IMG/VR virus record: IMGVR_UViG_3300034012_000235
Location: 1 to 58,209 of that record
DNA: 58,209 nt
Reading direction: 5' to 3' (one strand)
Source: a virus
Lineage: Duplodnaviria; Caudoviricetes
The position numbers and the translations under genes were made by a program. This document shows positions 9,206 to 48,568 of this stretch, one piece after another (position 1 is the stretch's first letter; every line of letters begins with the position of its first letter). The notes under the pieces were generated by a model. The model made no database searches. It was not told the DNA's origin and saw only the letters and a program-made list of their open reading frames with translations.

Positions 9206-9382
9206 TTACTCTCTTCCAAAGAGACGCTTGACCGTATCTGTCTCCCAAATACGGATTCCAGTCCAAACAATCGTAAACAAAGCTGCGATGGCAGGTAGGA
9301 ACTCCATAAGCGTCCCCAAAACTGTAGCGACGGATAGAGCATCGACTACATGCTTGGTGGAATCTGACAGTTCTTGCTTCAT
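9206..9382 (-). CDS. Small membrane protein (holin-like)
   Basis: 58 aa from ATG 9382; two hydrophobic segments; IRIWETDTV. Confidence 0.6.
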   Translation of the reverse strand: MKQELSDSTKHVVDALSVATVLGTLMEFLPAIAALFTIVWTGIRIWETDTVKRLFGRE

Positions 9383-9900
9383 CACCACCCCGGACAGTTC
9401 CAACGCTTCATCGAAGCCCTTGATCGGCTTCCCTTCTCGCTCTTTTCAGCGATAGAGCCCATTCTCGCGCAGAACGAGTCTCTACGGGAACCCCCTTCAG
9501 GCTGAGGCGCTTTGAGGTTGCTACCAGTCTCTCGGTTGTACTTCTCTCGACCCTTCTGGGTCAAACCAGCGCCGCGCTCCACAGGCATCTTCTCGCCTCG
9601 GCCCACTGCAAGGGATACCCCTCCGCTCTTCATTTTTTTCTCAGAAAACATCTTCTCAACCATGCCCAGCCGTTGAGGCTTAGTCGTCACATCGTTGATG
9701 ATTTCCAATCGTTGGGCTTTGCTTTTGGACGGCTCATAGAACCCAGCTTTTTTCAAAGACTGGACTACGCCGCCATCCTTCATTTCTTTGTCGGCCTTGA
9801 CAAATTCTTTCCCGACCTTTTGTGGCACACCACCAAAGCCGCCCTTAGTGTGAGCGGCCGCTTGCATCAAACGATGCTGGGCTGGTGACTTGCTTGGCAT
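9382..9900 (-). CDS. Basic virion-region protein built of three segments joined at MKxGG
   Basis: MPSKSPAQHRLM... / MKDGG... / MKSGG...SFCARM...RWNC. Confidence 0.75.
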   Translation of the reverse strand: MPSKSPAQHRLMQAAAHTKGGFGGVPQKVGKEFVKADKEMKDGGVVQSLKKAGFYEPSKSKAQRLEIINDVTTKPQRLGMVEKMFSEKKMKSGGVSLAVGRGEKMPVERGAGLTQKGREKYNRETGSNLKAPQPEGGSRRDSFCARMGSIAEKSEKGSRSRASMKRWNCPGW

Positions 9901-9902
9901 GA

Positions 9903-10307
9903 TCAGGCGTATGACTTAACCATCTCAAGGACGATGGTGTATTCATCTCCCGCAGATGCGTCCGAGGTGCTAAACAAGATGTCTCCATTCTTGCCTGCTC
10001 CGGCATTGTTGGTCAATCCACCAAACTTTTCAAAGTCAAAGGTGTACAAACTATTTTGCGGAATGGTTTGAATGAGTACATCTGCTGTTGCATCCCAGTA
10101 CATCAACACCTCCATACCGTGGGTAGCTGCATGAATTTTTGTAATAGTTACGCCAGTGCAGGCTAAACCAGATGCACTTGATGTCAAAGCAGAAACATCT
10201 ACCTTCAAAACTTTGTTTTCACCAGTACCGTCAGAAATGTTGGTGAATTTCATGATTGCCATCCGCTCACCATCTATGAGCGTTTGACTTGCGACTGCAT
10301 CAGCCAT
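9903..10307 (-). CDS. Virion structural protein (134 aa)
   Basis: Beta-rich ORF with GAGGT SD, within the head module. Confidence 0.7.
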   Translation of the reverse strand: MADAVASQTLIDGERMAIMKFTNISDGTGENKVLKVDVSALTSSASGLACTGVTITKIHAATHGMEVLMYWDATADVLIQTIPQNSLYTFDFEKFGGLTNNAGAGKNGDILFSTSDASAGDEYTIVLEMVKSYA

Positions 10308-10326
10308 TTCTAGTACCTCAAAGGAG

Positions 10327-10350
10327 AAGCGGGGGCCTAAGCCCCCACTT
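10327..10350 (-). terminator. GC-rich hairpin (GGGGGC-UUAG-GCCCCC) after the 323-aa gene; weak terminator or mRNA stabiliser
   Basis: Stem 10331-36/10341-46; only a broken U-tract (CUUCUCCUU) follows. Confidence 0.55.
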
Positions 10351-10353
10351 GGT

Positions 10354-11325
10354 TCAGCAGGTAACGGCCCCGCCGCGCTTCTTTGGAGTGACTGTTACAG
10401 ACTTTTCAGTCTTTGTCACTGCCCCAGGCGCACTAGCCGCCTTCGCTGGCGAGAAGACTTCCTTCAGCTTACGAGGAATTGACGAGATCAAGTTACCAAC
10501 GCCTTGCGACATGGCCTTGTTCTCTTCAGCCTGACTCTTCTCCCAGGCCTTGTAAGCCCGTTCGTTTCGTGCAGTCTGAATCGTATCCTCAACCCCCTTG
10601 GGAGGGGTTTCAGCCTTACCGCCAGAAGCCATCTTTACCGAGCCGCCCTTCTTGTAAGCGCCTGCACGGTCAGTTGCTCCAGCCGGGGGCGGAGCAGGCT
10701 TCTTGCCTTGGGGCATCGCCACGGGACGACCTGAGTCAACAAGCCCCCCCGTGGCGTAGGCTTTTTTTGCTGAGCCACCTTCCTTGTAGCCGCCAGCGTT
10801 TGCCTTCGCCACGCCACCAGTAGCATAGCCACCGCCATTGCCCATCTTCACATCACCAGTTTTGGCGGGTGAGTGATCAGGCTTTGCGGTGTCTACCTTG
10901 GTGGTTTTGCCAACCTTGGACTTGATGATGCCGCCATCCTTGTAGCCACCTTGCCCATCCACCACGCCACCCGTCTTCAGGCCCTTGTGAGCCTTAGAGG
11001 CAGGCTTTGCAGCATGTTCAGACAGAGTGTCGCCACCTTCCTTCATCATGCGACCAGCCATGCCCACAGGAGCCGCGGGAGCAGCGCCAGCAGGCATAGC
11101 CTTCATTGCACGGCGCCGAGCAGCCATAGAAGGCTTCCCAGGCGCTGCAGCAGGCATCATCCCGCCACGGGCAGGCGCACCACGCATAGCAGGACCAGCA
11201 GTAGGCGCAGCGGCAAGCGCCCCACCCATCTGCATCTTCTTCTCCACCGCGCCACCACTCTTGAGCTTCAGTTCGACTGAAGGCTCAGTGGTGGTCATCT
11301 TCACCATCGGCTTGAATTGACCCAT
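10354..11325 (-). CDS. Low-complexity Lys/Gly/Ala-rich protein with about 11 xxxGG motifs
   Basis: LKSGG, MQMGG, MKEGG, LKTGG, YKDGG, YATGG x2, YKEGG, YKKGG, MASGG, KKRGG. Confidence 0.8.
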   Translation of the reverse strand: MGQFKPMVKMTTTEPSVELKLKSGGAVEKKMQMGGALAAAPTAGPAMRGAPARGGMMPAAAPGKPSMAARRRAMKAMPAGAAPAAPVGMAGRMMKEGGDTLSEHAAKPASKAHKGLKTGGVVDGQGGYKDGGIIKSKVGKTTKVDTAKPDHSPAKTGDVKMGNGGGYATGGVAKANAGGYKEGGSAKKAYATGGLVDSGRPVAMPQGKKPAPPPAGATDRAGAYKKGGSVKMASGGKAETPPKGVEDTIQTARNERAYKAWEKSQAEENKAMSQGVGNLISSIPRKLKEVFSPAKAASAPGAVTKTEKSVTVTPKKRGGAVTC

Positions 11326-11327
11326 GA

Positions 11328-12017: not shown

Positions 12018-12035
12018 CTCGATCTCCTGTAGAGC

Positions 12036-12051
12036 GGGGGCCGAAGCCCCC
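12036..12051 (-). terminator. UUCG hairpin (GGGGGC-UUCG-GCCCCC) after the major capsid gene
   Basis: Perfect 6-bp stem with UUCG loop on the minus strand; no U-tract. Confidence 0.55.
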
Positions 12052-12059
12052 TCTGAGAT

Positions 12060-12974
12060 TTAGACTCCCGGCGTGCCGTACATGGCGCGAGGATCGGTGA
12101 AGCCGACGTCGTAACGCTCGGTGGCCTTGTAGCGCATCGAGTCAGTTTCGAAGTCACCTTCCATCGTCTTCTCCAGCTTGCGGCGCATCAGCAGCTTCAT
12201 GCCTTCCGGAGCATCGGTCTGCACCCACCATGCGGAGGGGTTGGTCAGACGCGACAGAACAGCGGCACCCTCGTCCAGCAAGCCGATAGACTTGATGGGG
12301 TTGATGTCGTTGTTCGCGTTGCCAGCACGCAGAACGCTCTTCAGCAGCACTTCAGCTTGGAAGACGTTGCCAGGAGCCACCACCAGTTGGCGGGGAACCA
12401 GACGGATCTTCTTGCCGTTGTTGTCCACAGCCTGACGGATCTGAATCAGCATCTGCTCCAGAGAGGTCTGGGACAGGTTAGCTGCAGTCGTCAGCAGGTT
12501 GGAGAACGTGCCGCTCACGATGGGGTGAGAAGCGCTGTTCAACTGCACACCGTCGCCGCCAGGATACGAGCTATTGAAAGCGCGGTTCAGCACGTTGGCC
12601 GACAGCGTTTCCTTCGTCTCGATCAGCGACTGGGCAAGGTGACGGGCGTACACCTGACCAATACGGATGTGATCGCCGTCCTCAACGAGCACCTTGGTCA
12701 GCGCGAAGGCCAGACCGTACACGCTGTAGACATAGCGCTTCAGGAACAGAACACCACCCTGCTGGTACGAAACCGGAGTGCCGTCAGGCAACTGCGGAGC
12801 CGCGCCAAAGCCGTACAGAACCGGCTCTTCGTGGTAGTTACGGGGGATACCTTCTTGTTCGCGGAAAACACGCGACCACTCATCGGTACGTTGGTCATAC
12901 ACGCCATCGAAGCATTCGTTGAGGATAGGCTCAACGATTGAACGAAAGTCGGTACTGCGCATCGGGGCTGCCAT
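12060..12974 (-). CDS. Major capsid protein (Mu gpT-like, HK97 fold)
   Basis: 304 aa; LVVAP, DFETDSMRYKATERY, DPRAMYGTPG motifs; head-module position. Confidence 0.88.
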   Translation of the reverse strand: MAAPMRSTDFRSIVEPILNECFDGVYDQRTDEWSRVFREQEGIPRNYHEEPVLYGFGAAPQLPDGTPVSYQQGGVLFLKRYVYSVYGLAFALTKVLVEDGDHIRIGQVYARHLAQSLIETKETLSANVLNRAFNSSYPGGDGVQLNSASHPIVSGTFSNLLTTAANLSQTSLEQMLIQIRQAVDNNGKKIRLVPRQLVVAPGNVFQAEVLLKSVLRAGNANNDINPIKSIGLLDEGAAVLSRLTNPSAWWVQTDAPEGMKLLMRRKLEKTMEGDFETDSMRYKATERYDVGFTDPRAMYGTPGV

Positions 12975-12989
12975 GATCTGCCCTCCTTA

Positions 12990-13592: not shown

Positions 13593-13609
13593 AATTTACT
13601 CCTTTGCCC

Positions 13610-14152: not shown

Positions 14153-14156
14153 TTGT

Positions 14157-15089
14157 TTAACCTCGGTTGTTTCGTGCTTCTTGGGCGTAACGCTTGATCA
14201 TCTTTGCGCGTTTTACTGGGTCATCCCAGAATCCCGCGTCCTTCATTGCTCTGACCATTTCTGGCTCAAGCACCAAAGTGTTGCCTTGTCGGCCACCAGT
14301 TGATTCGCGTCCCGATCCAGTTACAAAACTCCTTGGCCTCCTTTTGGGTTCGTCTTGTGATTGAGTATAACGATGCGGCAAGCGTTTCTGCAAGCGGGCG
14401 TCAAGTTCTTCCCAGTAGTCTGCAGAAGCAGGGTCGTAGCCCTCTTTTGCTAGCTTGGCGTCAATAATCTTGGCGATCTCGCTGTCTTCATCATTGCCAT
14501 TCGGGTCATACCAAGAATTGGCTTCCATCCAACTCTTCGCATGCCGCAGCATCTTCGGATCAGCTTGAGGCTCCTCTTGCGTCTTCTCCGCACGGGTTTT
14601 CAGAGCCTGCATGGACTCAAACTTGCGCAGAGCCTCTTCATATCCCTTGTTTGCCTGGGAATATGCGTCACCATTTGAGTTGTTAATCGCCTCTCGACGC
14701 TTGGCATCGAAATACTTCAGGCGCAACTCTTCGTCTTGAATAGCCTTGTCAAGTCGAGCCAACTCAAAGCTCTGGCTCTTCTTCTCAACTTCGGCTAGAC
14801 GCTTGCGGAACTCTTCGTTCTCACGTTGAAGCGACACCAACCGCTGGTCTTTCTCTTCGTTGGTGCGCTTGATGTATTCCTTCTTGGCCTTGCGGCGATT
14901 CCTGCGGGCTTCTCGCACCGCATCCGTATCACCGGGCTGGTCAGCATCTCCGTCGTCTTGAGCTACCTGAACTTCTGGTTCGTCAGAAGAATCTTCAGTA
15001 ACAAGCTCATCAGGCAGTTCTACGATTGCAGAACCGTCTTTCTCTTCAGTAACGGGGATGTCTTCAACTTTTTCTTTATCTGTGATCAT
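14157..15089 (-). CDS. Scaffolding protein
   Basis: Acidic N-terminus, long coiled coil, W-x-x-x-N-x-W-Y motif, basic C-terminus; position after portal/GroES. Confidence 0.7.
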   Translation of the reverse strand: MITDKEKVEDIPVTEEKDGSAIVELPDELVTEDSSDEPEVQVAQDDGDADQPGDTDAVREARRNRRKAKKEYIKRTNEEKDQRLVSLQRENEEFRKRLAEVEKKSQSFELARLDKAIQDEELRLKYFDAKRREAINNSNGDAYSQANKGYEEALRKFESMQALKTRAEKTQEEPQADPKMLRHAKSWMEANSWYDPNGNDEDSEIAKIIDAKLAKEGYDPASADYWEELDARLQKRLPHRYTQSQDEPKRRPRSFVTGSGRESTGGRQGNTLVLEPEMVRAMKDAGFWDDPVKRAKMIKRYAQEARNNRG

Positions 15090-15520
15090 AGGAAAGCCTT
15101 CATTGCCAGGGGGTCACCAGTAAGTTTGGCGATGATTTCATGGTCATTCAGCACCATGAACAGGGCGGGATCTTCAAGATCATCATCACCGGGGACTTTG
15201 ACTTCCCAGCGATCACCACCCCACTTGGGCACTCGGATGTAGTCTCCAGGGACACACCAAGAACCTTCAGGCCACGCAACCATCGTGTCGCGGTGCTTGA
15301 ACGCTAAGGGACCGATCTCGATCACCTTTGCCACCATGTTCTGCCACTTCTCGGTTTCCTTGGTTTCTTCCACCAAGATAATCCCGGCACTTGTTGCCTT
15401 CTTTTTGGTACGGCGCAACTGCACAAGAATACGCCCACCTAGAGGTTTTGCACCGGGGTCCACGCTCGGAAATGCCCAAGCCATCTCAGCCGCGTTAGCA
15501 GCTTCCGGTTGATTACTCAT
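15086..15520 (-). CDS. groES: GroES-like co-chaperonin
   Basis: KPLGGRILV, TSAGIILV mobile loop, VIEIGPLAF, LNDHEIIA. Confidence 0.85.
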   Translation of the reverse strand: MSNQPEAANAAEMAWAFPSVDPGAKPLGGRILVQLRRTKKKATSAGIILVEETKETEKWQNMVAKVIEIGPLAFKHRDTMVAWPEGSWCVPGDYIRVPKWGGDRWEVKVPGDDDLEDPALFMVLNDHEIIAKLTGDPLAMKAFL

Positions 15521-15692: not shown

Positions 15693-15839
15693 TCACTTCT
15701 TCTTAGTTGCCTGTGATAGACCTCCTTGCTTGGGTTTGTCGCCACCTTGCATGGTTTGCCCGGTAATCGGGGCACCCGCTGCCATACGCTTGTGCTGGGG
15801 CACAAGAACGCTCTTCTGCTCTTGATCACTGGTAGCCAT
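15693..15839 (-). CDS. Small basic protein (48 aa; not in ORF track)
   Basis: Manual translation MATSDQEQKSVLVPQHKRMAAGAPITGQTMQGGDKPKQGGLSQATKKK; AAGGA SD. Confidence 0.65.
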   Translation of the reverse strand: MATSDQEQKSVLVPQHKRMAAGAPITGQTMQGGDKPKQGGLSQATKKK

Positions 15840-22979: not shown

Positions 22980-23156
22980 TTAACACGGTTGGTGATGTAC
23001 CCATACTTCGTTGCCAGTTTCTGGGCACTTAAAGTCTAACCTAGGAAAGCACCAACACAAAGGGGACATCACATGCCCCTCTCCCAAGAAGTGCGTCCTG
23101 ACAACAGGCTCACTCGGAATATGGGTTGGTTCTTCTTTGTCTGCCAGTGTCTGCAT
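22980..23156 (-). CDS. Small His/Cys protein (start uncertain)
   Basis: H-x5-CWCFP...WVHH motif; overlaps the terL end. Confidence 0.5.
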   Translation of the reverse strand: MQTLADKEEPTHIPSEPVVRTHFLGEGHVMSPLCWCFPRLDFKCPETGNEVWVHHQPC

Positions 23157-39499: not shown

Positions 39500-42400
39500 T
39501 TAACCCCTAGCAGACTTTTGCTTGCTGGTCTTCTTGAGGTACTCAAGAGGCGACTTGGCAGGCGGTGGGAGATCCTTCGGACCAGACGACCTCGCGTGAG
39601 CACGGATGGAGTGCATCATGTCGTAGAGTTTATCTGATCCAGCCTTCGTTGATCCATTTCCTAATGCAGCAACTACGTCTGCAGGAAACACAAATTCACC
39701 ATCGGCCAGCATCGCAGGAATGTCGTCAGACTGCCCATCCCCAGGACCAGTCACTGCATCCCCGTGGCGGAAGTCAACACGGGCCTTGCCTGAGTGGTGA
39801 ACCACATTCAATCCACCCTTCGCGTACTTGCCGTATCGGGTTCCACCGCCAGAAGCAAACAGCGGAGTCGCAAGTCCACCAGCCTTGAATCCAAACGGAC
39901 TCTGCTGCTCTTGTGACTTGTTCTCTCCATACGGATCGAGCAGAGCATCGATGCTGGTCTCTTTCCCGTATGCGTAGCGGTCAGGCTGAGTTTGTTGTTG
40001 CTGCTGCGGTGCCATAGTGGTTTGCTGCTGTGTAGATGGAGTGAAATCACCCTTCTCGACCTGCGAGAAGAATGCTGCCAAGGGGCCAAGGAACTTAGAT
40101 TGCCCAGATGTTTGAAGCGGAGAGACAGTAGGCGCAGCTTGTGTTTTGGACGGACCCGCTGCAGGCTGCAGCATCTCCAAGCCAGTCTGACGCCGCTGCA
40201 GAGCTAGTCGTGCCGCCTTGTCTTTTTCTTCGTCAGCTATACGCTGACGCTCCATCTGCTGAAGCTGCCCAGTCAGATCCGTTTTCAGGCCAGAAATTTC
40301 GCCAAACAAACCAGTCGGCGCCCACCGGCTTCCGGGAGCAAACTCAGGAGGCTCACCACTACCCGTAGTCGCTCTATTGAGGAAGTCGTAATCAGACTGG
40401 TCGATCTTCCCGTCACGGTTAACGTCATACGTTAAGTCAGGGGCCGTTGTGACTTCACCCTTGATAACACTGTTGACGTAATCTAGATCGGCTTGGGTAA
40501 CTGCTTGTGCAGGTTTGCCAAGCAACGTAGACGCCTCGTCAATCTGCTTCTGAAGCGCAGTTTGACCACTTGTGATTTGTCCAGAAAGTTGAGTCTTGGC
40601 CTCAGTGATCTGGCCTTGAAGATTCTGAGCAGTAGTGCCCAGTTGAGTAGCAACATCTCCAATAGCGCGAGACAGCGCCTGATCCCGAGACAGACCCTGA
40701 GCCTCATACTCCGAAGCCCTGGTATTGATCCTAGCCTCAGCATCAGACAGAGCCGTCCCCAGCCCTTCTAGGCCGGTCGTAATCTGTTGCCCTAATGCAG
40801 TCTGAGACGCCTCGATCTCTGCCCGCAGATCGGAAGCGGTAGCCCCAAGCTGGGACAGAATGTCAGCCCTGCTCGTACCAAGATCAGTTGCAACCTGAGT
40901 CAATCCGGCCTGGATCGCCTGATACCGAGTGAGACCCCGAGCTTCTGCTGCGGCAATCGCATCATTCAGGCGACTCTCGGTGGAGGTGATCTGCTGACCA
41001 AGTGTCTGTTGAGAGGCTTGGATCTCTGAGCTAAGAGCAGACTGCGTTTGACCAAGTTGAGTCAACAGATCCTGGCGAGTAGTTCCCAGGTCAGATGCGA
41101 CTTGATCAAGACCAGACTGGATGGCCTGATCTCGCGTCATGCCACGCGCTTCTGCCGCGGCAATTGCTTGAGTCAGGCGCTGCTCAGTAGACTCAATCTG
41201 CTGGCCCAGAGCCGTCTGAGAAGCCTCGATCTCTCCACGAAGGGTAGATTCAGTCGTCCCAATCTGGCTGATCAAATCGGCCTTGGTCGTCCCAAGATCC
41301 GCAGCTACCGTGTTCAGCGCAGACTGCAGAGCTTGATCTCTGCTCATGCCACTGGCTTCCGCCGCGGCAATTGCGCTTTGCAGTCTTGACTCGACATCGC
41401 CCAGTTGCGATGTGAACTGCGACCTGAGAGCCTGCTCTGTGGTACCCAATTGAGTCAGCAGATCCGCCTTGGTAGTACCAAGATCAGAAGCCACAGAGTT
41501 GATTGCAGCAGTGATCGCTTGGTCACGGCTCATCCCCGCAGCTTCTGCGGCAGCAATGGCACTGGAGAGCCGCTGCTCTACATTGCCAATCTGCGTTTCA
41601 ACGCCGCCCAACCCGGCTTGAAGCTCTTGCCTGAGAGTCTGTTCAGACTTGCCGATCTGACCTAGAAGGTCATTCTTCGTGACGCCCAGGTCAGAAGCTA
41701 CTGAATCAATTGCCGCTGTCAGAGCCTGATCTCTGCTCAACCCAGAGGCTTCTGCGGCAGCTATGGCATCTTGCAGGCGCTTCTCTACGCCCGTCAATTC
41801 TTTTCTGACGCCACCAAGCTCAGTAGCAAATTGAGTGCGCAGCGTTTCTTCGCTCTTGCCAATCTGAGACAACAAGTCCGTCTTGGCAATTCCAAGATCG
41901 CCAGCTACTGCTTGGATCGCTGCATCTAGTGCAGCATCACCTTGCAATCCTGCCGCCTTGGCATCAGCAATAGCCTGAGTAAGCCGCGTCTCTACGCCGC
42001 CCAGTTCTTCCCTTACTCCGCCAAGTTCAGTTGCAAAGTCAGTACGAAGAGTTTGCTCCGTCTTCCCAATCTGACCAAGCAACGATTCTTTGGTAACACC
42101 AAGGTCAGCCGCAACTGACTGAATGGCTTGATTCAGCGCAGCATCACCAGCCAACCCTGAAGCCTTGGCCGCTGCAATTGCGTCCTGTAGGCGGGTTTCT
42201 ACGTTCCCAATCTCAGTAGTGACAGCACCTAATTGGGTTGAGAAGTCAGTTCTAAGTTGTTCTTCTGTCTTGCCAATTTGACCCAGCAAGTCCTGCTTGG
42301 TAGTGCCAAGCTCCGAGGATACCGAGTTAATCGCAGCTTGAAGTGCCGCATCGCCTTGTAGCCCTGATGCTTTGGCTGCAGCAATAGCCGCAGTGAGTCT

Positions 42401-45400
42401 GGACTCAACATTGCCAAGCTCTGCAGTAACTCCACCCAGTTGCGTAGAGAACTCAGTCCGCAACGCAGCTTCAGTAGTACCAAGCTGAGACAGCAGGTTC
42501 TCGCGGGTAGTTCCAAGATCACCGGCAACGCTCTGAATTGCCGCCTGCAAAGCAGCATCACCCTGAAGCCCAGAAGCCTTAGCAGCATCAATGGCCGCGG
42601 TAAGTCGAGACTCGACGTTCCCAAGTTCAGCTTGAACCTGACCCAGTTGTGTAGAGAAGTCTGTCCTGAGTTGCGTCTCAGTCTTCCCAAGCTGGCCCAA
42701 CAGGGCTTCCTTGGTGGTCCCCAATTCAGAGGACACAGAGTTGATCGCCGCTTGCAGTGCAGCATCACCTTGCAGGCCAGACGCCTTGGCGGCATCAATT
42801 GCAGCACTCAGTCGTGTCTCTACATTGCCGAGTTCAGTAGTTACAGCACCCAGTTGCGTAGCAAAGTCGGACCTGAGTTGAGTTTCGGTCTTCCCGATCT
42901 GCCCCAGCAGAGCTTCTCTGGTCGTTCCGAGATCGCCAGCAACAGACTCAATAGCCGCATTCAGCGCAGCATCTCCAGCAAGCCCGCTTGTCTTAGCTGC
43001 CTCGATGGCAGTATTCAGCCTTATCTCTACGTTGCCAAGTTCGGTAGTAACCGCGCCGAGTTGAGTAGAGAAGTCACTACGCAACTGCGCTTCTGTTTTA
43101 CCGATTTGGCCGAGCAATGCCTCCTTACTGGTGCCCAGATCCGCCGCAACTGCACTAATCGCAGATTGCAACGCAGCATCACTCGACATCCCTTGAGACT
43201 TCGCAGATTCAATAGCTGCGGTCAGTCGGCCTTCAACATTGCCAAGCTCTGTACTGATGGAACCCAGTTGCGTAGCGAATTCAGTACGCAGTTGGTTTTC
43301 AGTCTTTCCAATCTGGCCTAACAGAACCTCTCTGCTGGTCCCCAAATCAATCGCAACAGCGTCAATTGCGGACTGCAGGGCTACATCACCTTGCAGACCT
43401 TCGGCCTTAGCAGACTCAATAGCAGCAGTAAGCCTTGACTCCATTGCTGGATCAACGCCACCAGTAGCCAGTTGGTTAATCTTCTGCGCCAAAGAGTTAT
43501 ATCGCGCCGTATCAAGAGACTCTGCAGCCTTCCCGCTTAGGTCAGCCTCCAAGTATTTGCCGACCAGCGCCTGGACATCTGCCTCCGTGGGATCAGGCAA
43601 TCCAAGCTGCCTATACGCTTCGCGCACTTCTTCAGCAGCAACCACCAACGGATCAGCAAAGCTCTCAACAGCAGTTTTGGTAGATGCTTCAATGGGATTC
43701 GCAGTTGTGGCAACGAAGCGATTGATCTCTTCTTGTGTGGGATTGGTGTACCCAACTGCCTCAAGCATCGCACGGGCTTCTGCCTCCGTGACCTGACGCT
43801 CACCCACATAAGTTTGAGTGCGTCCTCCAAGCTCAGACTCTGCATACTGACCAACAAACTGATCCGCCGCTTGTAATGCAAGTTCAGGCGTGTAGCCAGC
43901 AGCGATAAGACTATCAACCGCCTCTTGGCGCATCACAGCCAGCGGATCTGCAAACTGTCGCGTCAGTGTTTCAGCCTCCGATTGATCTCTTTGACCAATA
44001 AAGTCAGCCGCCTGCTCATCTGTCAGCGTGACGCCCTGCTGCGCTGCAGCAGCCTTGACTTCTTGAATATCGATGTAGTTGCGGTCTACGTAGTTAGATA
44101 CCGCTGCAACCAAATCTGCTTCGCTCTTGACCCCAGCGAATGACTCAATGGTCTGCGTGTCAGGATTGAAGTAGCCATACTGCTTAAACGCATCAGCGGC
44201 TTCTTTGGTCGTGACGGCAGCATCATCAAACTTGACATCAACCGCAGTCGCAAGATCGGAACCTTGAAGACCAAGGCTCTGCAAGTTCTGCGTTAGCGTT
44301 TGCGCGTCAGGCGATTGCGTGACAGACAAGGCAATATTGCCAATGTCTGCGTTGTCGTAGCCAGTGCCAGCAAGGTTATCAAGATTGGTCTTGTAGGCCG
44401 TCAGGCTGAAGTTGGGGTCCGCAGTGGCAACATCAGCCACGCGGCTGAGATCGCTTAGCGATACCTGAGCATCGCCAACCTTCGCCGTGATGGCATCAAA
44501 GTTAAACGATCCCGGCTGGATCTGTTTAACTCCGCTCAGATACTCACTGAGGGTGACAACATTGCCGTTTACATCACGGGCAACGGGCAGGTTTTGGCTG
44601 ATCGCACTCGGTGCCATCAAGCCGCTGGCAACACCCATCTCCAAGATGCCGCCAATTGCTCCGGCGTTACGAGACTGCTGCCAGTCCACTTGGCCGAAGG
44701 AGTTGTACTGCATGGAAGCGTTCTCAACGAACTCGCTTCCCCAGCCCTCGGCGTACTGCTTGGCTGCCATACCAGCAAACTGAGGGGCGGTGATCTTGCC
44801 CACATCCCCCATGAACGTCTTGACCAAAGACGCATCTGCGACACCAGATAACAAGCCAGCAGCCAGCGCACCTTGAGCGCCCGCCTTCCAGCCTTGTGTC
44901 ATTGCTTGGTCGTGCGTTCCACCTTGCTTGCGGATGTTGTCGTAGGTCTCGCCAAAGTTGGCACCAAAAGACTCTGCGCCGTTTAAGAAGACGTTGGTTC
45001 CAGTTGCTGTTGCGTATGCAAGACCCTTACCTGCGACACCCAAAGCCAGACGGCCCATGCCGCCAGATGCAAGCAAAAGAGGTATTTCCTGTACGCCCTC
45101 TTTGCCCAGCATGGTCAAAGCGCCAGCAGGGTTATCGGCAATAGCCTTAACTGTTGCGCCTAGCGTGCCCCAAACACCCTTTGCGTCCGAGATGGATTTG
45201 AGGATGTTTTCTTCTTGCTGCTTGGTGCCGGCAGATTGGATGCTTGATCCGTACTCTGATACCTTTTTTGCAGCTTGTGCCGCAGCGTTGTCCCTGCTTA
45301 CAAGCCCAGTAGCAAAAGCCGCATCACTGAATATCTTGACCAGTTCTCCAGTACCTTGCAATGTCACAGACACCGCATCTACCAATCCTTGCTTCTGTCC

Positions 45401-48400
45401 AGTTGTCAGGCCGCTGGACTTAATAAAGTCCACAAGGTACTTGGAAGTGTCGATGATTGACTCACCAACACCAGATGTTTTTGGATCAAGTTTTGACGCC
45501 GTCTCCAAGTACAACAAAGGATCAGCAGACCTTGGATCTTCGGGTGACAACTGTTGAATCTGCCGCGCAAGATCCAAGTCTTCAAATATTCCCTTAAGAA
45601 CCCCCTCTGTTTTATCGTTAATGACGTAAGCAATACTGCCATCAGACAAAACTATTTGTGATGCCGAATTGTCTTCAAGAGCCTCTTTGGCTGTTGCAAG
45701 TCTTACGCCAGAAAATCCTTTGATTTCATCCAAAGCACTCTGAGATAGATCTGCTTTGTTTTCGTCAACTATGGCAGTGCCGCGAATGTCCACTCTAAAC
45801 GGCCCACCAGCCTGTGCATCTCGCACCTCTTGTGCGCTGCGCGTGTTGTTGTTCAGGAAGTCTTGAGCAGATGCCGCCTTGATCTGGCTGACATCATTGC
45901 CGTAAACAGCATGGACGCCTGCACGAATCTGTGCGATCTGATCTTGCGACAGGTCGGCCATCGACAGACCATTGGCTTCGACTACGCGCTGGATCAGCTT
46001 GGCCGTCTCTTGTTGAAGCCTTCCATCAAAAGCCGCAGCAAGGTTACTGTCATTGACTAAATAAGGCTTGTTGTTGAAGATGTAATTGTTGTAACCCGCA
46101 GCCTTAGCAGCAGCCTCTGTGGCCGCTTGGTTCATTGCTGGATCGCCTTCATAGGTCACCGCACGAACGTCTGCCAACCGCTGAGCATATGTCTCGGCAG
46201 TTGCCTCAGAACCGCGCATCATCATCTGAAGATGATCTGCCGTGAGATCCTTTTCAGACAATCCAGCTTTCTTCCAGAGGTCTACAGCCTCTTGGCCGTC
46301 AGTGCTGTTTTTGTCGGCAACAAACTCGTTGTACTTGCCAGCGATGATGTTCTTGGTGTCGGCCTCTGATCGACCCAGCAAGTCCACCATCTCATCATTG
46401 GTCAGCGCTATCTGGCCCTTGCCAATGTCTCGCAAGAACTGATCAAGCTCATCAGAACTAACATTACCCCTGTCGTAGGCGATATTGCCAACCTCAGTTC
46501 TTGCTGAAGACTCAGACAGGCCAATAAGGCCCATGAGTTCAGCCTCAGTGGGCTCTGTGCCTACGTTTTGCCGCCAGAACTGCCGAGCTTCTGCCTCCGT
46601 CGTGTACAGCGCATTGGCGGCTGCAGTCGGATTCTGGCTGTTAAACAGGTAGTCAAGAGCGCTCTGATTGAGCGTTCCGCCTTGACCTTCCAAGACATTA
46701 GCCGCTTGCGTGAGCTTAGTGATCCTGTCTTGGGCCTGCATCTCGTTCAAGCCCAGAAGACTATTCTTCTGTTCTTGCGTCAGCGGCAGACGATTGCCTG
46801 CGGTGCCCTGGATGATTTGATCAAGCTCTGCAGCGTCAGTCTTGTCCTTGTCGTAAATAAAACTAGCGGCTTGCTGCTCTGACAAGCCAACCATTTGACC
46901 AAGCTCAGCCTCTGTAGGCTCGGTGCCAAACGATGATCTCCAGAATGCCCGCGCCTCATCAAGACTTGTGGCAAGCGTGTCTACATATCTGGCCGGATCA
47001 CTTTGCCGCAGGACTTCACTTAATTGGGAATCAGAAAGCTGCTGACCACCAGTGTCTTGGCTGTAGGCGCTTTGCGCGTTGCGAATGACAGAAGACTTTT
47101 GGTCTTGTACTACTTGGGCTGCAGCCGCCTCATCTCTTCCCGTGATCTGCTGTATTTCGCTGCTTGTTGGCTGCCTGCCAAAAGCCTGCTCAAACAATGC
47201 AGTGGCTTCCTGACTGGAGGTACCTGCGCGATCTACGTTCCCAACCAAGTCACCATTGGTCGCATACTGAGCAAGCTCATCATCCGTAGGATCTCTGCCT
47301 GTTTGCTCCTTAAACAAAGATTTTGCTGTGGCCGTATCTTCTATGCCTTTTAGAGCAAGCGCAGCGTTCTTCGTTTCTTGTACTTGAAACTCTTGAACTG
47401 CCTTATCTAAATTGTCAGCACTTGTTTTGTACTGACCAACATACTGCTCGTATTGGTTTTTAAGCCCATCTAAAGTGCTGCTATACGAATTAAAAGTCCC
47501 AATGTTTTGGTTATAAAACTCGTTGTATGACTCAATAATTCTATTAGCGTTATTTGCCTTATTATTTAAGTCATTTAACTTCTCTTCCGCCAAACTATAT
47601 GCAAACTCCCATTGTTCGCCTCCGGGGCGCAAAAACGTAGTATAGGAACCATTCTCATCACTATGGTTATAGAACTGATAGCCCTTTGATGTCAAATACG
47701 ATTCGTCGTTTGACCAACCATAGTTGAAGACTTCATTTACCGCGTTATAAAGCCTTTTTGCGTCATCGTAGTCTGCTGTTGCGTTTTGAACGTCTGCATA
47801 CCTATTGTTTATATCCTTAGCAAGATTGTTGTACGCATCAACATAATTTTGTTGTTGCGCCAAATTGCTGTCAATTTGATCCTTTACATTTTTAACATTG
47901 TCGGCTTCTGCTTTTACTTGTGCGCTGTAATCTTTGACGCCGTCTTTGATGTAATTAAGGCCAATGCCTGCGAATGACGTAAGAGCACTTTGCGTAAACG
48001 CATCCTTAGCGGAGCCTCCAAGGATGCCTGTGGCAATAGCTGTCTTTGTCGCCCGCTGGAAAGCGTCTCCAATCTGAGAGCCAGTGGGCTTGCTCAGAAT
48101 GTCAATGTCTTTTGTGAACTCGCCTACAGCAGTGTTGACACCAGCGCTAAGTCCAGCCGTCAAGCCACCTTTGATCAATGCTTCAATTGGATCACGCCCA
48201 CTCAACAGGGCAGATGTACCGCTGCTGATAGCGCCTGCAGCAGCGCCACCCAAGACATTGCCCATGATGACGGCGGTCTTACCACCTACACCTGAAGCAA
48301 TAGCGTTAAACGCTACATCGCTTGCGATGGAGCTTGCAATTCCGCTTCCTACGCCAGCAGTGATACCTCCAAGAACGGCTGACTTCAGAACATCACTGAC

Positions 48401-48568
48401 ACTCCCGCCTTGAACAGCGGTGATGCCACCCGCAATGACAGCAGTGCCAATAGCAGTAGCGGCAACAGTGCTTACGGCACTGCCAACAATTGCCGCGCCA
48501 ATCGCTCCACCGATTGTGGCGGTTAGGCCAGTTGCCGCAGCCGCCCCAAGAAGTAGTGCTGCTGGCAT
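39500..48568 (-). CDS. Giant (3022 aa) internal virion / ejection protein with helical repeats
   Basis: Gly/Ala-rich hydrophobic N-terminus, short PT-x-x-E-[LI] repeats, ~69-aa tandem repeats, C-terminal GPGDGQSDDIPAMLADGEFV domain. Confidence 0.75.
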   Translation of the reverse strand: MPAALLLGAAAATGLTATIGGAIGAAIVGSAVSTVAATAIGTAVIAGGITAVQGGSVSDVLKSAVLGGITAGVGSGIASSIASDVAFNAIASGVGGKTAVIMGNVLGGAAAGAISSGTSALLSGRDPIEALIKGGLTAGLSAGVNTAVGEFTKDIDILSKPTGSQIGDAFQRATKTAIATGILGGSAKDAFTQSALTSFAGIGLNYIKDGVKDYSAQVKAEADNVKNVKDQIDSNLAQQQNYVDAYNNLAKDINNRYADVQNATADYDDAKRLYNAVNEVFNYGWSNDESYLTSKGYQFYNHSDENGSYTTFLRPGGEQWEFAYSLAEEKLNDLNNKANNANRIIESYNEFYNQNIGTFNSYSSTLDGLKNQYEQYVGQYKTSADNLDKAVQEFQVQETKNAALALKGIEDTATAKSLFKEQTGRDPTDDELAQYATNGDLVGNVDRAGTSSQEATALFEQAFGRQPTSSEIQQITGRDEAAAAQVVQDQKSSVIRNAQSAYSQDTGGQQLSDSQLSEVLRQSDPARYVDTLATSLDEARAFWRSSFGTEPTEAELGQMVGLSEQQAASFIYDKDKTDAAELDQIIQGTAGNRLPLTQEQKNSLLGLNEMQAQDRITKLTQAANVLEGQGGTLNQSALDYLFNSQNPTAAANALYTTEAEARQFWRQNVGTEPTEAELMGLIGLSESSARTEVGNIAYDRGNVSSDELDQFLRDIGKGQIALTNDEMVDLLGRSEADTKNIIAGKYNEFVADKNSTDGQEAVDLWKKAGLSEKDLTADHLQMMMRGSEATAETYAQRLADVRAVTYEGDPAMNQAATEAAAKAAGYNNYIFNNKPYLVNDSNLAAAFDGRLQQETAKLIQRVVEANGLSMADLSQDQIAQIRAGVHAVYGNDVSQIKAASAQDFLNNNTRSAQEVRDAQAGGPFRVDIRGTAIVDENKADLSQSALDEIKGFSGVRLATAKEALEDNSASQIVLSDGSIAYVINDKTEGVLKGIFEDLDLARQIQQLSPEDPRSADPLLYLETASKLDPKTSGVGESIIDTSKYLVDFIKSSGLTTGQKQGLVDAVSVTLQGTGELVKIFSDAAFATGLVSRDNAAAQAAKKVSEYGSSIQSAGTKQQEENILKSISDAKGVWGTLGATVKAIADNPAGALTMLGKEGVQEIPLLLASGGMGRLALGVAGKGLAYATATGTNVFLNGAESFGANFGETYDNIRKQGGTHDQAMTQGWKAGAQGALAAGLLSGVADASLVKTFMGDVGKITAPQFAGMAAKQYAEGWGSEFVENASMQYNSFGQVDWQQSRNAGAIGGILEMGVASGLMAPSAISQNLPVARDVNGNVVTLSEYLSGVKQIQPGSFNFDAITAKVGDAQVSLSDLSRVADVATADPNFSLTAYKTNLDNLAGTGYDNADIGNIALSVTQSPDAQTLTQNLQSLGLQGSDLATAVDVKFDDAAVTTKEAADAFKQYGYFNPDTQTIESFAGVKSEADLVAAVSNYVDRNYIDIQEVKAAAAQQGVTLTDEQAADFIGQRDQSEAETLTRQFADPLAVMRQEAVDSLIAAGYTPELALQAADQFVGQYAESELGGRTQTYVGERQVTEAEARAMLEAVGYTNPTQEEINRFVATTANPIEASTKTAVESFADPLVVAAEEVREAYRQLGLPDPTEADVQALVGKYLEADLSGKAAESLDTARYNSLAQKINQLATGGVDPAMESRLTAAIESAKAEGLQGDVALQSAIDAVAIDLGTSREVLLGQIGKTENQLRTEFATQLGSISTELGNVEGRLTAAIESAKSQGMSSDAALQSAISAVAADLGTSKEALLGQIGKTEAQLRSDFSTQLGAVTTELGNVEIRLNTAIEAAKTSGLAGDAALNAAIESVAGDLGTTREALLGQIGKTETQLRSDFATQLGAVTTELGNVETRLSAAIDAAKASGLQGDAALQAAINSVSSELGTTKEALLGQLGKTETQLRTDFSTQLGQVQAELGNVESRLTAAIDAAKASGLQGDAALQAAIQSVAGDLGTTRENLLSQLGTTEAALRTEFSTQLGGVTAELGNVESRLTAAIAAAKASGLQGDAALQAAINSVSSELGTTKQDLLGQIGKTEEQLRTDFSTQLGAVTTEIGNVETRLQDAIAAAKASGLAGDAALNQAIQSVAADLGVTKESLLGQIGKTEQTLRTDFATELGGVREELGGVETRLTQAIADAKAAGLQGDAALDAAIQAVAGDLGIAKTDLLSQIGKSEETLRTQFATELGGVRKELTGVEKRLQDAIAAAEASGLSRDQALTAAIDSVASDLGVTKNDLLGQIGKSEQTLRQELQAGLGGVETQIGNVEQRLSSAIAAAEAAGMSRDQAITAAINSVASDLGTTKADLLTQLGTTEQALRSQFTSQLGDVESRLQSAIAAAEASGMSRDQALQSALNTVAADLGTTKADLISQIGTTESTLRGEIEASQTALGQQIESTEQRLTQAIAAAEARGMTRDQAIQSGLDQVASDLGTTRQDLLTQLGQTQSALSSEIQASQQTLGQQITSTESRLNDAIAAAEARGLTRYQAIQAGLTQVATDLGTSRADILSQLGATASDLRAEIEASQTALGQQITTGLEGLGTALSDAEARINTRASEYEAQGLSRDQALSRAIGDVATQLGTTAQNLQGQITEAKTQLSGQITSGQTALQKQIDEASTLLGKPAQAVTQADLDYVNSVIKGEVTTAPDLTYDVNRDGKIDQSDYDFLNRATTGSGEPPEFAPGSRWAPTGLFGEISGLKTDLTGQLQQMERQRIADEEKDKAARLALQRRQTGLEMLQPAAGPSKTQAAPTVSPLQTSGQSKFLGPLAAFFSQVEKGDFTPSTQQQTTMAPQQQQQTQPDRYAYGKETSIDALLDPYGENKSQEQQSPFGFKAGGLATPLFASGGGTRYGKYAKGGLNVVHHSGKARVDFRHGDAVTGPGDGQSDDIPAMLADGEFVFPADVVAALGNGSTKAGSDKLYDMMHSIRAHARSSGPKDLPPPAKSPLEYLKKTSKQKSARG
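40660..43450 (-). repeat. About 14 degenerate tandem repeats, unit mostly 207 bp (69 aa), within the giant gene
   Basis: GDAAL / SRDQA anchors at about 42969, 42762, 42555, 42348, 42141, 41934 (207-bp spacing) and flanking copies. Confidence 0.85.

Follow-up and report, generated by a model that had tools for sequence, protein, structure and literature searches.

Phage T4, with its capsid-targeting sequence (CTS), and P1, with its Dar packaging signals, use short peptides to direct otherwise unrelated proteins into the head, to be injected from there. The prohead protease gp21 removes the T4 CTS, an N-terminal signal that directs its carriers to the scaffold core. Proteolysis of head or tail proteins occurs in T4, lambda and T5, and adenovirus core proteins are processed at (M/I/L)xGG, the consensus of the viral protease being (M/I/L)xGG-x. 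Double-glycine leaders are cut by C39 peptidases, and the GroES mobile loop binds GroEL through GG and a hydrophobic tripeptide.

Polyvalent proteins are described, in the parts of Iyer et al. 2017 (PMC5512222) cited here, as large mosaics with ART-PolyVal, LPD23 and ParB_N domains whose genes lie amid those for virion proteins and which are predicted to be packaged into the particle and then injected; autoproteolytic processing has been proposed for them. The same parts describe the MuF / SPP1 gp7 cargo, whose gene lies beside the portal gene and whose product is thought to bind the portal and to be injected. For tape measure proteins (TMPs), the C-terminal region has been proposed as a tail-tip anchor (cited sections of PMC11445458 and PMC10038345). 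Residues 818-849 of lambda gpH are bound to gpI in cryo-EM (cited section of PMC12617516), and residues 1022-1066 of the JBD30 TMP form a 'hook', a baseplate anchor proposed from the authors' AlphaFold model (cited section of PMC11445458). Here we describe a short motif that is shared between TMPs of this kind and several other proteins of a phage genome stretch of 58,209 nucleotides, referred to as the window.

Frequency of the motif in the window

The preliminary description of the window had reported that one pentapeptide pattern, [YMFL][AK]xGG, recurs in four dissimilar proteins. This recurrence was confirmed. There were 19 strict copies compared to 3.4 expected from within-protein residue shuffles, namely two in a 172-aa, nine in a 323-aa, three in an 1123-aa and five in a 3022-aa ORF (per-protein shuffle p <=0.002 in each), and all eight coordinates given earlier translate to pentapeptides as claimed. 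The strict pattern was absent from the other 32 minus-strand ORFs examined, and a six-frame search of all 259 ORFs of 60 aa or more found it in the four only. When the same residue classes were reordered, the top scorer of 35 control patterns reached 11. Codons vary among the copies, and together with the enrichment over shuffles this upholds the earlier view that the peptide, not the DNA, is under selection; the data support the motif as a genuine peptide-level signal. As had been noted, the major capsid protein and the terminase lack it, and the strict form is also missing from the portal of the window. Its carriers are all late proteins, which are probably virion-internal.

It is extremely improbable that the pattern is a composition artefact or chance recurrence in Lys/Gly-rich, low-complexity proteins. 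K and G are abundant in the 323-aa and 172-aa proteins, the pattern was set post hoc from the data themselves, two of the five copies in the 3022-aa protein look random, and in 33 portal-upstream proteins the reversed pattern is somewhat raised (24 compared to a shuffle mean of 8.4). However, shuffles that keep the composition, which bear on the earlier concern that Lys/Gly content alone might explain the motif, never attained the observed counts; the motif emerged again from an unbiased tally centred on GG; and its position, a second point on which the signal had been expected to stand or fall, is conserved in homologues even where the protein bodies are unrelated.

The 172-aa and 323-aa proteins

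The major capsid protein (Mu gpT-like; 12060..12974, minus strand; Pfam Phage_capsid_4, E 3.1e-11; no motif) served as the anchor for finding relatives, which comprise 80 IMG/VR loci with a major capsid protein 94-99% identical. The 172-aa protein (9382..9900, minus strand) is a small modular protein with a DUF3008-like N-terminus, an inserted module and a C-terminal DUF6321 domain (Pfam, E 9.4e-15). Its two copies, both on the minus strand, are MKDGG (9769-9783) and MKSGG (9619-9633). MKSGG directly precedes the DUF6321 domain in this family, and its K91, G93 and G94 are at least 90% conserved or invariant in an alignment of 30 sequences. Among relatives, 52 of 63 family members carry the motif. 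Other metagenomic phages contributed 25 DUF6321 proteins of 302-2000 aa, in which 47 copies were present compared to 6.5 expected; nine of the 25 carried none.

The 323-aa protein (10354..11325, minus strand) is a basic (pI 10.2), Lys/Ala/Gly-rich repeat protein of no known family. Its nine strict copies lie on the minus strand at 11251-65, 11032-46, 10966-80, 10930-44, 10813-27, 10774-88, 10744-58, 10642-56 and 10618-32, and the variants MQMGG, PARGG and KKRGG also occur. At least 4303 homologues were found at E<=1e-3 (8000 scored), all of them unnamed and without a Pfam family; only one of 50,697 phage records contained one. The motif was present in all 73 family members from relatives, with a mean of 9.2 copies, and 112 members of the family have 7-10 copies each.

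The 1123-aa protein and other portal-upstream proteins

The 1123-aa protein (18375..21746, minus strand) is a mosaic, putatively of the 'polyvalent' type. Its gene sits between the large terminase gene (23110-24528) and the portal gene (15826-18372), directly upstream of the latter and with a stop/start overlap, and is therefore encoded, as polyvalent proteins are, among the virion and packaging genes of a portal-terminase phage. Module A (about residues 25-682) includes a PcfJ-like domain (Pfam PcfJ, E 1.9e-7, the sole family above the cut-off) and module B spans about residues 707-1120. YAKGG (19722-19736) and MAGGG (19596-19610), on the minus strand, lie on either side of the junction, and YKKGG (18423-18437, minus strand) lies 15 residues before the C-terminus. 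The motif was found in 22 of 23 homologues in relatives. The C-terminal 100 aa are shared by 31 proteins (246-1620 aa) with PcfJ, ParB_N, LPD23 or ART-PolyVal domains, in which 80 motif copies were counted compared to 6.7 expected. At the same locus in seven relatives, ART-PolyVal was detected in two, LPD23 above the cut-off in one and below it in another, ParB_N weakly, and no family in four. Judged from sequence, the gene upstream of the portal appears to code for mosaic 'polyvalent' effector proteins with the motif at module junctions.

In 33 hypervariable portal-upstream proteins, 93 copies were counted compared to 8.4 +/- 2.8 after shuffling (maximum 16 in 300 shuffles), and the 7-residue pattern gave 79 compared to 2.3 expected. 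Many of these proteins keep the motif without BLAST similarity to that of the window. The unbiased tally covered all 426 distinct GG sites of portal-upstream proteins, 22% of which are preceded by [YMFL][AK]x (3% expected). At position -3, M, F and Y were enriched 5.3-, 3.0- and 2.4-fold, and at -2 A was enriched 2.3-fold. Residues at +1 after GG vary (A 14%, E 10%, G 10%); V at +2, the frequent x-V of the preliminary description, was enriched 4.4-fold although it had not been searched for. The placement in linkers and near C-termini was likewise borne out. A copy lies 5-33 residues from the C-terminus in 32 of 34 portal-upstream proteins, and [AKRQ]xGG occurs in the last 46 residues of 32 of 34 (3.1 in shuffles, maximum 9; 5.1 in random internal windows), the C-terminal element being missing from two, but the C-termini share ancestry in many of the 34 (about a dozen tail types distinguished by eye), so that these counts overstate the independent events. 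Protein P0123 terminates in FAEGGLA, i.e. in the bare motif, and a 171-aa protein of MW202545.1 terminates in FKKGGKVNW.

Like the polyvalent proteins of Iyer et al., those encoded upstream of the portal are large mosaics in a virion-gene setting, and some in relatives have ART-PolyVal, LPD23 or, weakly, ParB_N domains. They differ in having a common motif at junctions and termini, for which the main text of PMC5512222, where the words 'linker' and 'glycine' do not occur, gives no counterpart. A megaplasmid LPD23 polyvalent protein, the one such protein checked, has a single match in 4659 aa compared to 0.7 expected, indicating that polyvalent proteins do not use the motif as an all-purpose linker. 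Like the genes of MuF / SPP1 gp7 head proteins fused to effectors, the gene for the candidate cargo adjoins the portal gene; unlike them, it lies upstream and not downstream of it, no MuF domain was found, and the conserved part is a 7-residue motif with a short tail and not a folded domain.

The motif might instead be an inherited hinge or linker cassette. It would then be a flexible connector that forms turns and was dispersed along with shuffled modules; it would be neither cut nor bound to a specific partner, and would be kept for domain-by-domain folding and for threading through the channel of portal and tail. A hinge role is an obvious one for Gly-Gly, the motif sits in linkers between shuffled modules, DUF6321 and 'GGLYANIHAK' modules recur across many phages with the motif at their edges, and a lineage-restricted distribution suits descent and recombination. 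We nevertheless consider a hinge rather unlikely, as it leaves unexplained the conserved hydrophobic residue at -3 and Val at +2, the copy that almost every portal-upstream protein has at its extreme C-terminus, where there is nothing to link, the proteins terminating in the bare motif, and the roughly ten copies in a protein without folded domains. Moreover, the varying codons of the copies show that conservation is not at the level of DNA microhomology.

The 3022-aa protein and tape measure proteins

We interpret the 3022-aa protein (39500..48568, minus strand) as tape-measure-like and either ejected or internal. Like the TMPs lambda gpH, T5 pb2 and JBD30 gp46, it has G-x-G-x-S-D-x-I-P-A-x-L-x-D/N-G-E-F/Y-V in its last ~110 residues, within a module (39533..39769, minus strand) that reads G-x-G-D-G-Q-S-D-D-I-P-A-M-L-A-D-G-E-F-V-F-P-A-D-V-V. 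As in TMPs, GxGxSDxIPAxLxxGEFV and an adjoining [FY]AxGG are found close to the C-terminal end of this very long, probable virion protein. The motif forms a tandem cluster (39812..39889, minus strand) of FKAGG (39875-89), FASGG (39845-59) and YAKGG (39812-26), with a period of about 10 residues and the form Phi-A-x-G-G-Phi-x-x-P-L. In each of the 20 family members fetched, the 75 aa ahead of the module contain 1-4 strict copies, and conservation of the copy 1 GG is at least 90% in a family alignment with a mean column identity of 31%. The two remaining copies, LASGG (45059-45073) and LATGG (43457-43471), are probably due to chance, since the bodies of 20 homologues hold only five strict matches in about 40,000 aa.

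The C-terminal 139 aa matched 13,190 cluster representatives at E<=1e-3, in proteins of 97-3022 aa and always C-terminally, and tblastn retrieved 57 phage records, most of them annotated as tape measure protein. The top PDB sequence match of the module was weak, to the JBD30 TMP (8rk3_A, E 0.46). Homologues of the module are present in MW202545.1 and in Caulobacter phage RW gp066c. The module is covered by no Pfam or NCBIfam model, and no Pfam TMP model matches the 3022-aa protein; the lambda gpH model, NCBIfam TIGR01541, gave no match in its last 400 aa, while lambda gpH itself scored 448.7 bits over residues 472-813.

Siphophage TMPs with the element by the C-terminal module are those of lambda, JBD30, Klebsiella phage Kpn BU9, Nitrincola phage 1M3-16 and Arthrobacter phage RadFad. 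FATGG or FASGG lies directly upstream of the module in the first four, and the siting is the same in DSL-LC04, MinM2, MW202545.1 and RW; in RadFad, FATGG lies about 12 residues downstream. Lambda gpH has two to three copies in total, with YATGG downstream of the module and MRDGG seven residues before the protein end, within residues 818-849. By module alignment, FASGG of JBD30 lies at about 1019-1023, at the start of the hook. RW gp066c terminates in YMDGGRV. None of the papers cited here names the motif.

The motif adjoins the module after a hydrophobic or Gly-rich stretch, as in lambda-type TMPs. Unlike in those, it is also carried in the window by three other proteins that lack the module. 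The window phage further differs from the siphophage hosts of such TMPs in looking like a podovirus by its relatives and its SU10-type adaptor; gene content suggests that it may be short-tailed, and no tail tube or chaperone genes were recognised in the window. The tag had been put forward as a genome-wide address label for loading proteins into the head. In its simple form the head address is weakened by the presence of the same element beside the TMP module in the siphophage tail lumen, and a genome-wide label does not agree with three further presumed internal proteins (399, 500 and 334 aa) that lack the motif. The parallel with the T4 CTS and the P1 Dar signals, a short peptide on unrelated proteins, is one of analogy. 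A T4-type CTS, N-terminal and removed by a prohead protease, was rejected: the copies in the window are internal or C-terminal, no protease was seen, and tail-lumen proteins also carry the motif.

Possible cleavage at the motif

A phage or host protease might cut polyprotein-like cargo into modules at the motif, and the 323-aa protein into small peptides. BLAST blocks on the 1123-aa protein end at 648-687 and start at 706-748, with motifs 671 and 713 bracketing the module junction, and 16.1% of 361 block endpoints lie within 10 aa of a motif compared to 6.2% at random. According to the cited section of PMC12617516, the cleavage site and protease of lambda gpH are unknown. FATGG occupies gpH residues 733-737, and fragments starting at 713, 723 or 738 would have masses of 14.4, 13.7 and 12.2 kDa, which would place the gpH cut near FATGG within gel error. 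The autoproteolysis proposed for polyvalent proteins in the cited part of PMC5512222 would also fit.

We consider processing unlikely. The late ORFs gave no match to any protease family, in agreement with the earlier remark that no prohead protease is recognisable, and Pfam scans of 29 ORFs detected no C39 or adenain-like peptidase. Two conserved head-module families (180 and 200 aa) show neither an invariant Ser/His/Cys/Asp set nor any match to PDB sequences, and HExxH occurs in only 4 of 34 portal-upstream proteins. Cutting at copies 2-9 residues from the C-terminus or at tandems 8-10 residues apart would release pointless peptides, which weakens the cut-site alternative that had also been offered at first. 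A hydrophobic residue a few positions ahead of GG is common to the motif, double-glycine (C39) sites and adenovirus (M/I/L)xGG-x sites, but the Phi-[AK]-x-GG spacing exceeds the adenain consensus by one residue. No copy stands in an N-terminal leader, and a double-glycine leader or C39 substrate was accordingly rejected. In the cited section of PMC10038345, T5 pb2 is cut after R1127, which is no GG site.

Head proteins and distribution among phages

The portal (15826..18372, minus strand; PHROG portal family, E 3.9e-16) has a half-motif, DGSAIV (18226-18243, minus strand), in its acidic N-terminal arm. DG[SGR][AV]xV was present in 34 of 34 aligned portals, 12 of which also have xGGx(x)V within the first 50 residues; the full motif occurred in 4 of 62 portals of relatives. 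The same hexapeptide is found at 15021-15038 (minus strand) in a 310-aa scaffold-like protein (14157..15089, minus strand) with an acidic N-terminus and a charged, coiled-coil-like middle. In this family, 58 of 62 distinct members have DG[GS] or [AK]xGG in the first 90 residues, nearly all as EExDG[SG]AxVELP, and 16 of 72 homologues in relatives have a strict EMAxGGxV copy further along. No motif was found in the major capsid protein (0/80), terminase (0/21) or GroES-like protein (0/63) of relatives.

The GroES-like (Cpn10) protein of the head module (15086..15520, minus strand; Pfam Cpn10, E 2.5e-6) also lacks the motif in the window, and its mobile-loop region reads TSAGIILV. Its gene is kept in Caulobacter phage RW, CRP-901, HTVC023P and QDWS535, all without motif enrichment. 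A mimic of the GroES mobile loop was rejected, as +1 after GG is variable with only +2 rich in Val, and relatives that keep GroES are not enriched.

RW66, the homologue of the 3022-aa protein in RW, retains one strict copy, and strict copies were absent from T7 gp14, gp15 and gp16 and from the Mu and HK97 TMPs. By these sequence comparisons the motif is lineage-restricted. It would appear to be dispensable in related phages, which counts against a docking function.

Discussion

Tentatively, we prefer to read the motif as a docking or anchor element that can move between virion-internal, ejected proteins, and not purely as a head address. Phi-[A/K]-x-G-G-x-[V/A/I] would be a portable short linear motif, a small strand-turn-strand docking peptide, on proteins that travel inside the virion and exit ahead of or with the DNA. 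Its oldest and commonest setting may be beside the C-terminal anchor module of lambda-type TMPs and their podovirus counterparts, of which the 3022-aa protein would be one. In this freshwater phage lineage the element may have spread to the junctions and C-termini of portal-upstream polyvalent effectors, to the basic repeat protein (about ten copies) and to small DUF6321 proteins. It would let unrelated cargo proteins attach to one shared partner in the virion (the portal or the tail channel) or to one another, and such binding would load the cargo and keep it positioned for ejection.

That the motif binds rather than being cut, and to what partner, we infer from several observations. These are its selection and restriction (19 compared to 3.4, 93 to 8.4, 47 to 6.5 and 80 to 6.7 copies), its persistence while protein bodies change, its terminal position, including proteins ending in the bare motif and lambda MRDGG in the gpI-bound segment, the TMP setting with JBD30 FASGG at the start of the hook, and the DGSAIV half-motif common to the acidic N-termini of the portal and the scaffold-like protein. 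Copies also recur in tandem at a spacing of 8-10 residues, which suggests multivalent binding. Against docking, lambda, Arthrobacter siphophages and aquatic podoviruses would need a conserved receptor or self-pairing; the variable +1 and the acidic or basic context are loose for a specific binding site; and siting at module boundaries suits a cleavage site or a linker equally well.

A more specific proposal, which we think quite unlikely, is a self-sufficient ejection-cargo tag that pairs as a beta-hairpin with DG[S/G]AxV hairpins (on the twelve portal arms and the scaffold) or with itself. Tagged proteins would then be strung on a portal-anchored bundle headed by the 3022-aa protein and leave in a fixed order, the 323-aa protein with its ~10 copies would act as multivalent glue, and the same contact would anchor lambda-type TMPs in the tail tip.

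The motif links the conserved, unexplained Gly-rich C-terminal region of lambda gpH with polyvalent anti-host proteins and, as a third link, with the abundant, unnamed family of the 323-aa protein (at least 4303 members at E<=1e-3). Since lambda has two to three copies, the question is open to test in a standard laboratory phage. If the motif is a docking tag, it would provide a rule by which short-tailed phages load large, fast-evolving effectors into the capsid, and a handle for packaging chosen proteins in phage particles.

Occurrence of the motif in the window

The strict motif [YMFL][AK]xGG (the tag) was matched 19 times in four minus-strand ORFs encoding proteins of 172 aa (9382-9900), 323 aa (10354-11325), 1123 aa (18375-21746) and 3022 aa (the giant, 39500-48568), compared to an expectation of 3.4 matches when the residues of each protein were shuffled. 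The shuffle p value was at most 0.002 for each of the four ORFs singly, and none of 35 order-permuted control patterns exceeded 11 matches, the best score among them. Composition or chance, which the preliminary description had named as a possible source of the motif frequency, was thus excluded by the shuffles and the permuted-pattern controls. Of the 259 ORFs of 60 aa or longer in all six frames, no others contained the strict pattern. Translation returned each pentapeptide at the position originally assigned to it and bore out the claim that codons differ between copies; since they differ, DNA-level repeats or microhomology were ruled out as the source of the motif. Two of the five matches in the giant, at residues 1166 and 1700, are probably due to chance, because the N-terminal bodies of 20 giant homologues held only 5 strict matches in about 40,000 aa.

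Genome organization and relatives

The window comprises a single complete contig, a phage genome with its late genes on the minus strand. In transcription order, the late genes start with the small terminase (Sf6-type), the large terminase (23110-24528) and the 1123-aa protein, all on the minus strand, followed by the portal (15826-18372, minus; PHROG E 3.9e-16). A GroES-like (Cpn10) protein (15086-15520) is encoded within the head-assembly module, with the portal gene on one side and the gene for an acidic, coiled-coil-like scaffold-like protein of 310 aa on the other. Conserved 180-aa and 200-aa proteins are encoded between the scaffold-like gene and the gene for the Mu gpT-like major capsid protein (12060-12974, minus), after which come the genes for the 229-, 323-, 134- and 172-aa proteins and then adaptor-like and fibre genes. 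Genes for an SU10-type adaptor (56990-57625) and tail proteins are located across the window ends and are followed by those for presumed internal proteins of 399, 500 and 334 aa and for the giant. A nozzle-like protein of 735 aa is encoded at 53541-55748. The fibre-like protein of 1099 aa (1831-5130) has five Laminin_G_3 / concanavalin-like lectin domains (E 4.7e-86). Two small basic proteins consist of mini-modules widespread in phages, namely DUF5872 (57627-58019) and a DUF3008-like module plus DUF6321 (9382-9900).

The capsid protein was 88.5% identical to that of uncultured phage MW202545.1, 77% identical to those of Caulobacter phages RW, GB2A, RLK and KcrB, and 38-42% identical to those of Roseobacter phage CRP-901, Pelagibacter phage HTVC023P and others. 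A GroES (Cpn10) homologue is kept in RW, CRP-901, HTVC023P and QDWS535, and a published study lists GroES as a core gene of HTVC023P-type phages (PMC9599517).

Conservation of the motif among related loci

A capsid-protein search of IMG/VR gave 594 related stretches, and 80 loci with 94-99% identical capsid proteins were kept. Every 323-aa homologue at these loci (73 of 73) had the motif, with 9.2 copies on average, and so did 22 of 23 homologues for the 1123-aa protein and 52 of 63 for the 172-aa protein. Such conservation would be expected of a functional element. The motif was found in none of 63 GroES-like and 56 adaptor-like proteins, and in 16 of 72 scaffold-like proteins. The motif had been reported as missing from capsid, portal and terminase; this held for the window's own proteins and for all 80 capsid proteins and 21 terminases, but 4 of the 62 portals of relatives carried it. 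The preliminary description had also named a lack of positional conservation in homologues as a refuting outcome; in the 172-aa family the copy before the DUF6321 domain stays in position.

The gene just 5' of the portal gene, which encodes the 1123-aa protein in the window, is hypervariable, and many of its products without BLAST similarity to the window's protein still carry the motif. Thirty-five ORFs ended next to a portal gene, from which two portal fragments (L019_101_823 and L063_579_1493) were left out. The resulting 33 products (upstream-of-portal proteins; 33,433 aa) held 93 copies compared to 8.4 +/- 2.8 in shuffles (maximum 16, n=300). The seven-residue form Phi-[A/K]-x-G-G-x-[V/A/I] occurred 79 times in the same proteins, with 2.3 expected, while the reversed pattern occurred 24 times, somewhat above shuffles. 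When residues around all 426 distinct GG sites were counted without a preset pattern, the motif emerged again: Met, Phe and Tyr were enriched 5.3-, 3.0- and 2.4-fold at position -3, Ala 2.3-fold at position -2 and Val 4.4-fold two residues after GG, and the motif prefix preceded 22% of the sites vs 3% expected.

Among the relatives with 94-99% identical capsid proteins (loci L006-L085), the portals were only 61-96% identical and the upstream-of-portal gene was often unrelated. The portal and cargo genes seem to form a cassette that is exchanged independently of the capsid gene.

Proteins carrying the motif

ART-PolyVal and LPD23 domains were identified in the upstream-of-portal proteins of relatives. 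In the parts of Iyer et al. 2017 (PMC5512222) that deal with them, these domains are hallmarks of 'polyvalent proteins', for which the authors predict packaging and injection; the main text of that paper does not contain the words 'linker' or 'glycine'. DUF6321 was found as a C-terminal module of large polyvalent-type proteins, beside ART-PolyVal, SLT and NUDIX domains. Twenty-five such large DUF6321 proteins from other metagenomic phages held 47 strict copies compared to 6.5 expected, distributed over 16 proteins with none in the other 9, and typical inter-domain settings were EGYADGGAVHLQSGG or KYAEGGEVKGY.

The 323-aa protein is basic (pI 10.2) and was assigned to no family by Pfam, PHROG and PDB sequence searches, although it falls within a large unnamed group (4303 matches at E<=1e-3 among 8000 scored). 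PDB sequence searches were likewise empty for the tail of the 1123-aa protein and for the 180-aa and 200-aa families. Two ESM Atlas searches, scoring 0.91 to an unnamed viral cluster and 0.76, were uninformative.

No motif enrichment was observed in the six-frame ORFs of RW, CRP-901, HTVC023P and QDWS535 (5, 0, 6 and 3 matches, respectively), T7 gp14, gp15 and gp16 and the Mu and HK97 tape measure proteins had no strict copy, and one megaplasmid LPD23 polyvalent protein, a single case, had 1 match in 4659 aa vs 0.7 expected. The motif is therefore lineage-restricted and not general to ejected or polyvalent proteins. Mimicry of the GroES mobile loop was ruled out, as the hydrophobic tripeptide is absent and GroES is kept by relatives without motif enrichment. 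DNA binding as a common role was also ruled out, with many copies having acidic surroundings, for example EMADGGEV or EGYADGGAV.

Position of the copies within the proteins

Copies were located at module boundaries. In the upstream-of-portal proteins, 16.1% of 361 internal BLAST block ends fell within 10 residues of a copy, compared to 6.2% of random positions. Module A of the 1123-aa protein (residues ~25-682, with a PcfJ-like domain) ends at the copy at residue 671, with copy 713 at the start of module B (~707-1120) and copy 1104 at its end. Neighbouring copies were often spaced by 8, 12 or 23-28 residues. In the 172-aa family, extra copies close each inserted mini-module, and the module 'GGLYANIHAKRERIAxGSGExMRKPGSxGAPT' was present or missing between close relatives.

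This junction position would fit a cleavage site, and the cutting of the lambda tape measure protein gpH is a precedent. However, family searches matched no protease in any late ORF, in agreement with the earlier remark that no prohead protease is recognisable, no catalytic residue is invariant in the 180-aa or the 200-aa family, and HExxH occurs in just 4 of 34 upstream-of-portal proteins. We consider cleavage at the motif unlikely. The HExxH count also ruled out a zincin protease acting in cis.

The looser pattern [AKRQ]xGG was located 5-33 residues from the C-terminus in 32 of 34 upstream-of-portal proteins, compared to 3.1 in shuffles (maximum 9, n=500) and 5.1 in random internal windows. 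As about a dozen tail types, judged by eye, cover all 34 C-termini, independent events are fewer than these counts suggest. The last 100 residues of the 1123-aa protein recur on 31 proteins of 246-1620 aa that differ in their precomputed Pfam domains (PcfJ, ParB_N, LPD23, ART-PolyVal) and hold 80 strict copies vs 6.7 expected. Such mosaic spread fits an inherited hinge, but a hinge leaves the flanking conservation and the terminal copies unexplained, and this reading is doubtful.

At upstream-of-portal C-termini of nine loci (L017, L022, L035, L037, L041, L048, L049, L050 and L058), a second recurrent short module, (Y/F)NTxPDxSDGGxIIxGPxF, is frequently found ahead of the last tag and an amphipathic short tail (LDAMxxAVxxxK or GLSxLxK) frequently behind it. 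Both were shuffled among otherwise unrelated proteins.

The hexapeptide DGSAIV was identical in acidic N-terminal regions of the portal (18226-18243, EELPDGSAIVRM) and the scaffold-like protein (15021-15038, EEKDGSAIVELP) and occurred nowhere else in the proteome. DG[SGR][AV]xV was present in 34 of 34 aligned portals, and 58 of the 62 homologues of the scaffold-like protein fitted the search pattern DG[GS]/[AK]xGG, in almost every case as EExDG[SG]AxVELP. DGSAIV resembles a half-version of the tag (x-D-G-G/S-A-x-V), and it may be an assembly contact common to the portal and the scaffold-like protein.

Connection with tape measure proteins

The last ~110 residues of the giant are homologous to the C-termini of the MW202545.1 639-aa protein and RW gp066c. 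Among phage records, 57 matched the giant's C-terminus, the majority with the annotation tape measure protein (TMP), and a weak PDB match was obtained to the JBD30 TMP (8rk3_A, E 0.46). The C-terminal stretch common with TMPs (the module, 39533-39769) is covered by no Pfam model among those searched; 13,190 relatives were found among 1.84 billion cluster representatives, always C-terminal, in proteins of 97-3022 aa. All 20 fetched relatives had 1-4 strict copies in the 75 residues upstream of the module, in a tandem 10-mer Phi-A-x-G-G-Phi-x-x-P-L. In the giant's family (including P0241-P0390), the C-terminal ~130 residues are nearly identical, and the remainder varies from <100 to ~3000 residues of long Thr/Ala/Asn/Gln-rich and coiled-coil repeat arrays, wholly different between members.

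Copies also lie near this region in known TMPs and related proteins. In lambda gpH, FATGG (733) and YATGG (778), both within the TIGR01541 span, flank the GEFVF segment, and MRDGG is at 842. FATGG stands immediately before GPGTGxSDSI...LSNGEFV in the Kpn BU9 and Nitrincola TMPs and ~12 residues past the module in RadFad, copies lie immediately before the module in DSL-LC04 and MinM2, and HTVC027P has YADGG ~125 residues upstream plus variants. HK97 gp21 (locus L091, 13834-14442), similar to lambda gpI (the hub protein holding the TMP C-terminus), has two strict copies, FAAGG and YAFGG; in the HK97 TMP just the variant FAKGAG occurs, together with IRPGG close to the end.

Passages of the lambda study (PMC12617516) describe gpH as cut in its glycine-rich C-terminal region with release of ~14 kDa, the site and protease being unknown, and gpI as bound by gpH residues 818-849. 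Fragment masses place a 14-kDa cut near residues 713-723, whereas a cut after FATGG would release 12.2 kDa, which is compatible with ~14 kDa within gel error but does not count as evidence. According to parts of the respective papers, T5 pb2 is cut after R1127 and its new C-terminus anchors in the hub (PMC10038345), and residues 1022-1066 of the JBD30 TMP are modelled as an anchoring 'hook' (PMC11445458). By alignment with the giant's C-terminus, FASGG of the JBD30 TMP is at ~1019-1023.

A docking or anchor unit is the reading we tentatively favour, because of the bare terminal copies (protein P0123 ends in FAEGGLA, the MW202545.1 171-aa protein in FKKGGKVNW and RW gp066c in YMDGGRV), the common tandem arrays, the 323-aa protein with ~10 copies and little else, and the motif adjoining the TMP anchor region. 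These features are hard to square with cutting or a mere hinge.

The listed matches of literature searches with motif-variant and module strings were all unrelated papers or PCR primers, and a search for 'DUF6321' gave 0 papers. The main texts or passages of the polyvalent-protein, lambda, T5 and JBD30 papers contain no description of the motif. We class it with a known kind of signal, the short peptides that target or anchor virion-internal proteins, and it can be tested in lambda.
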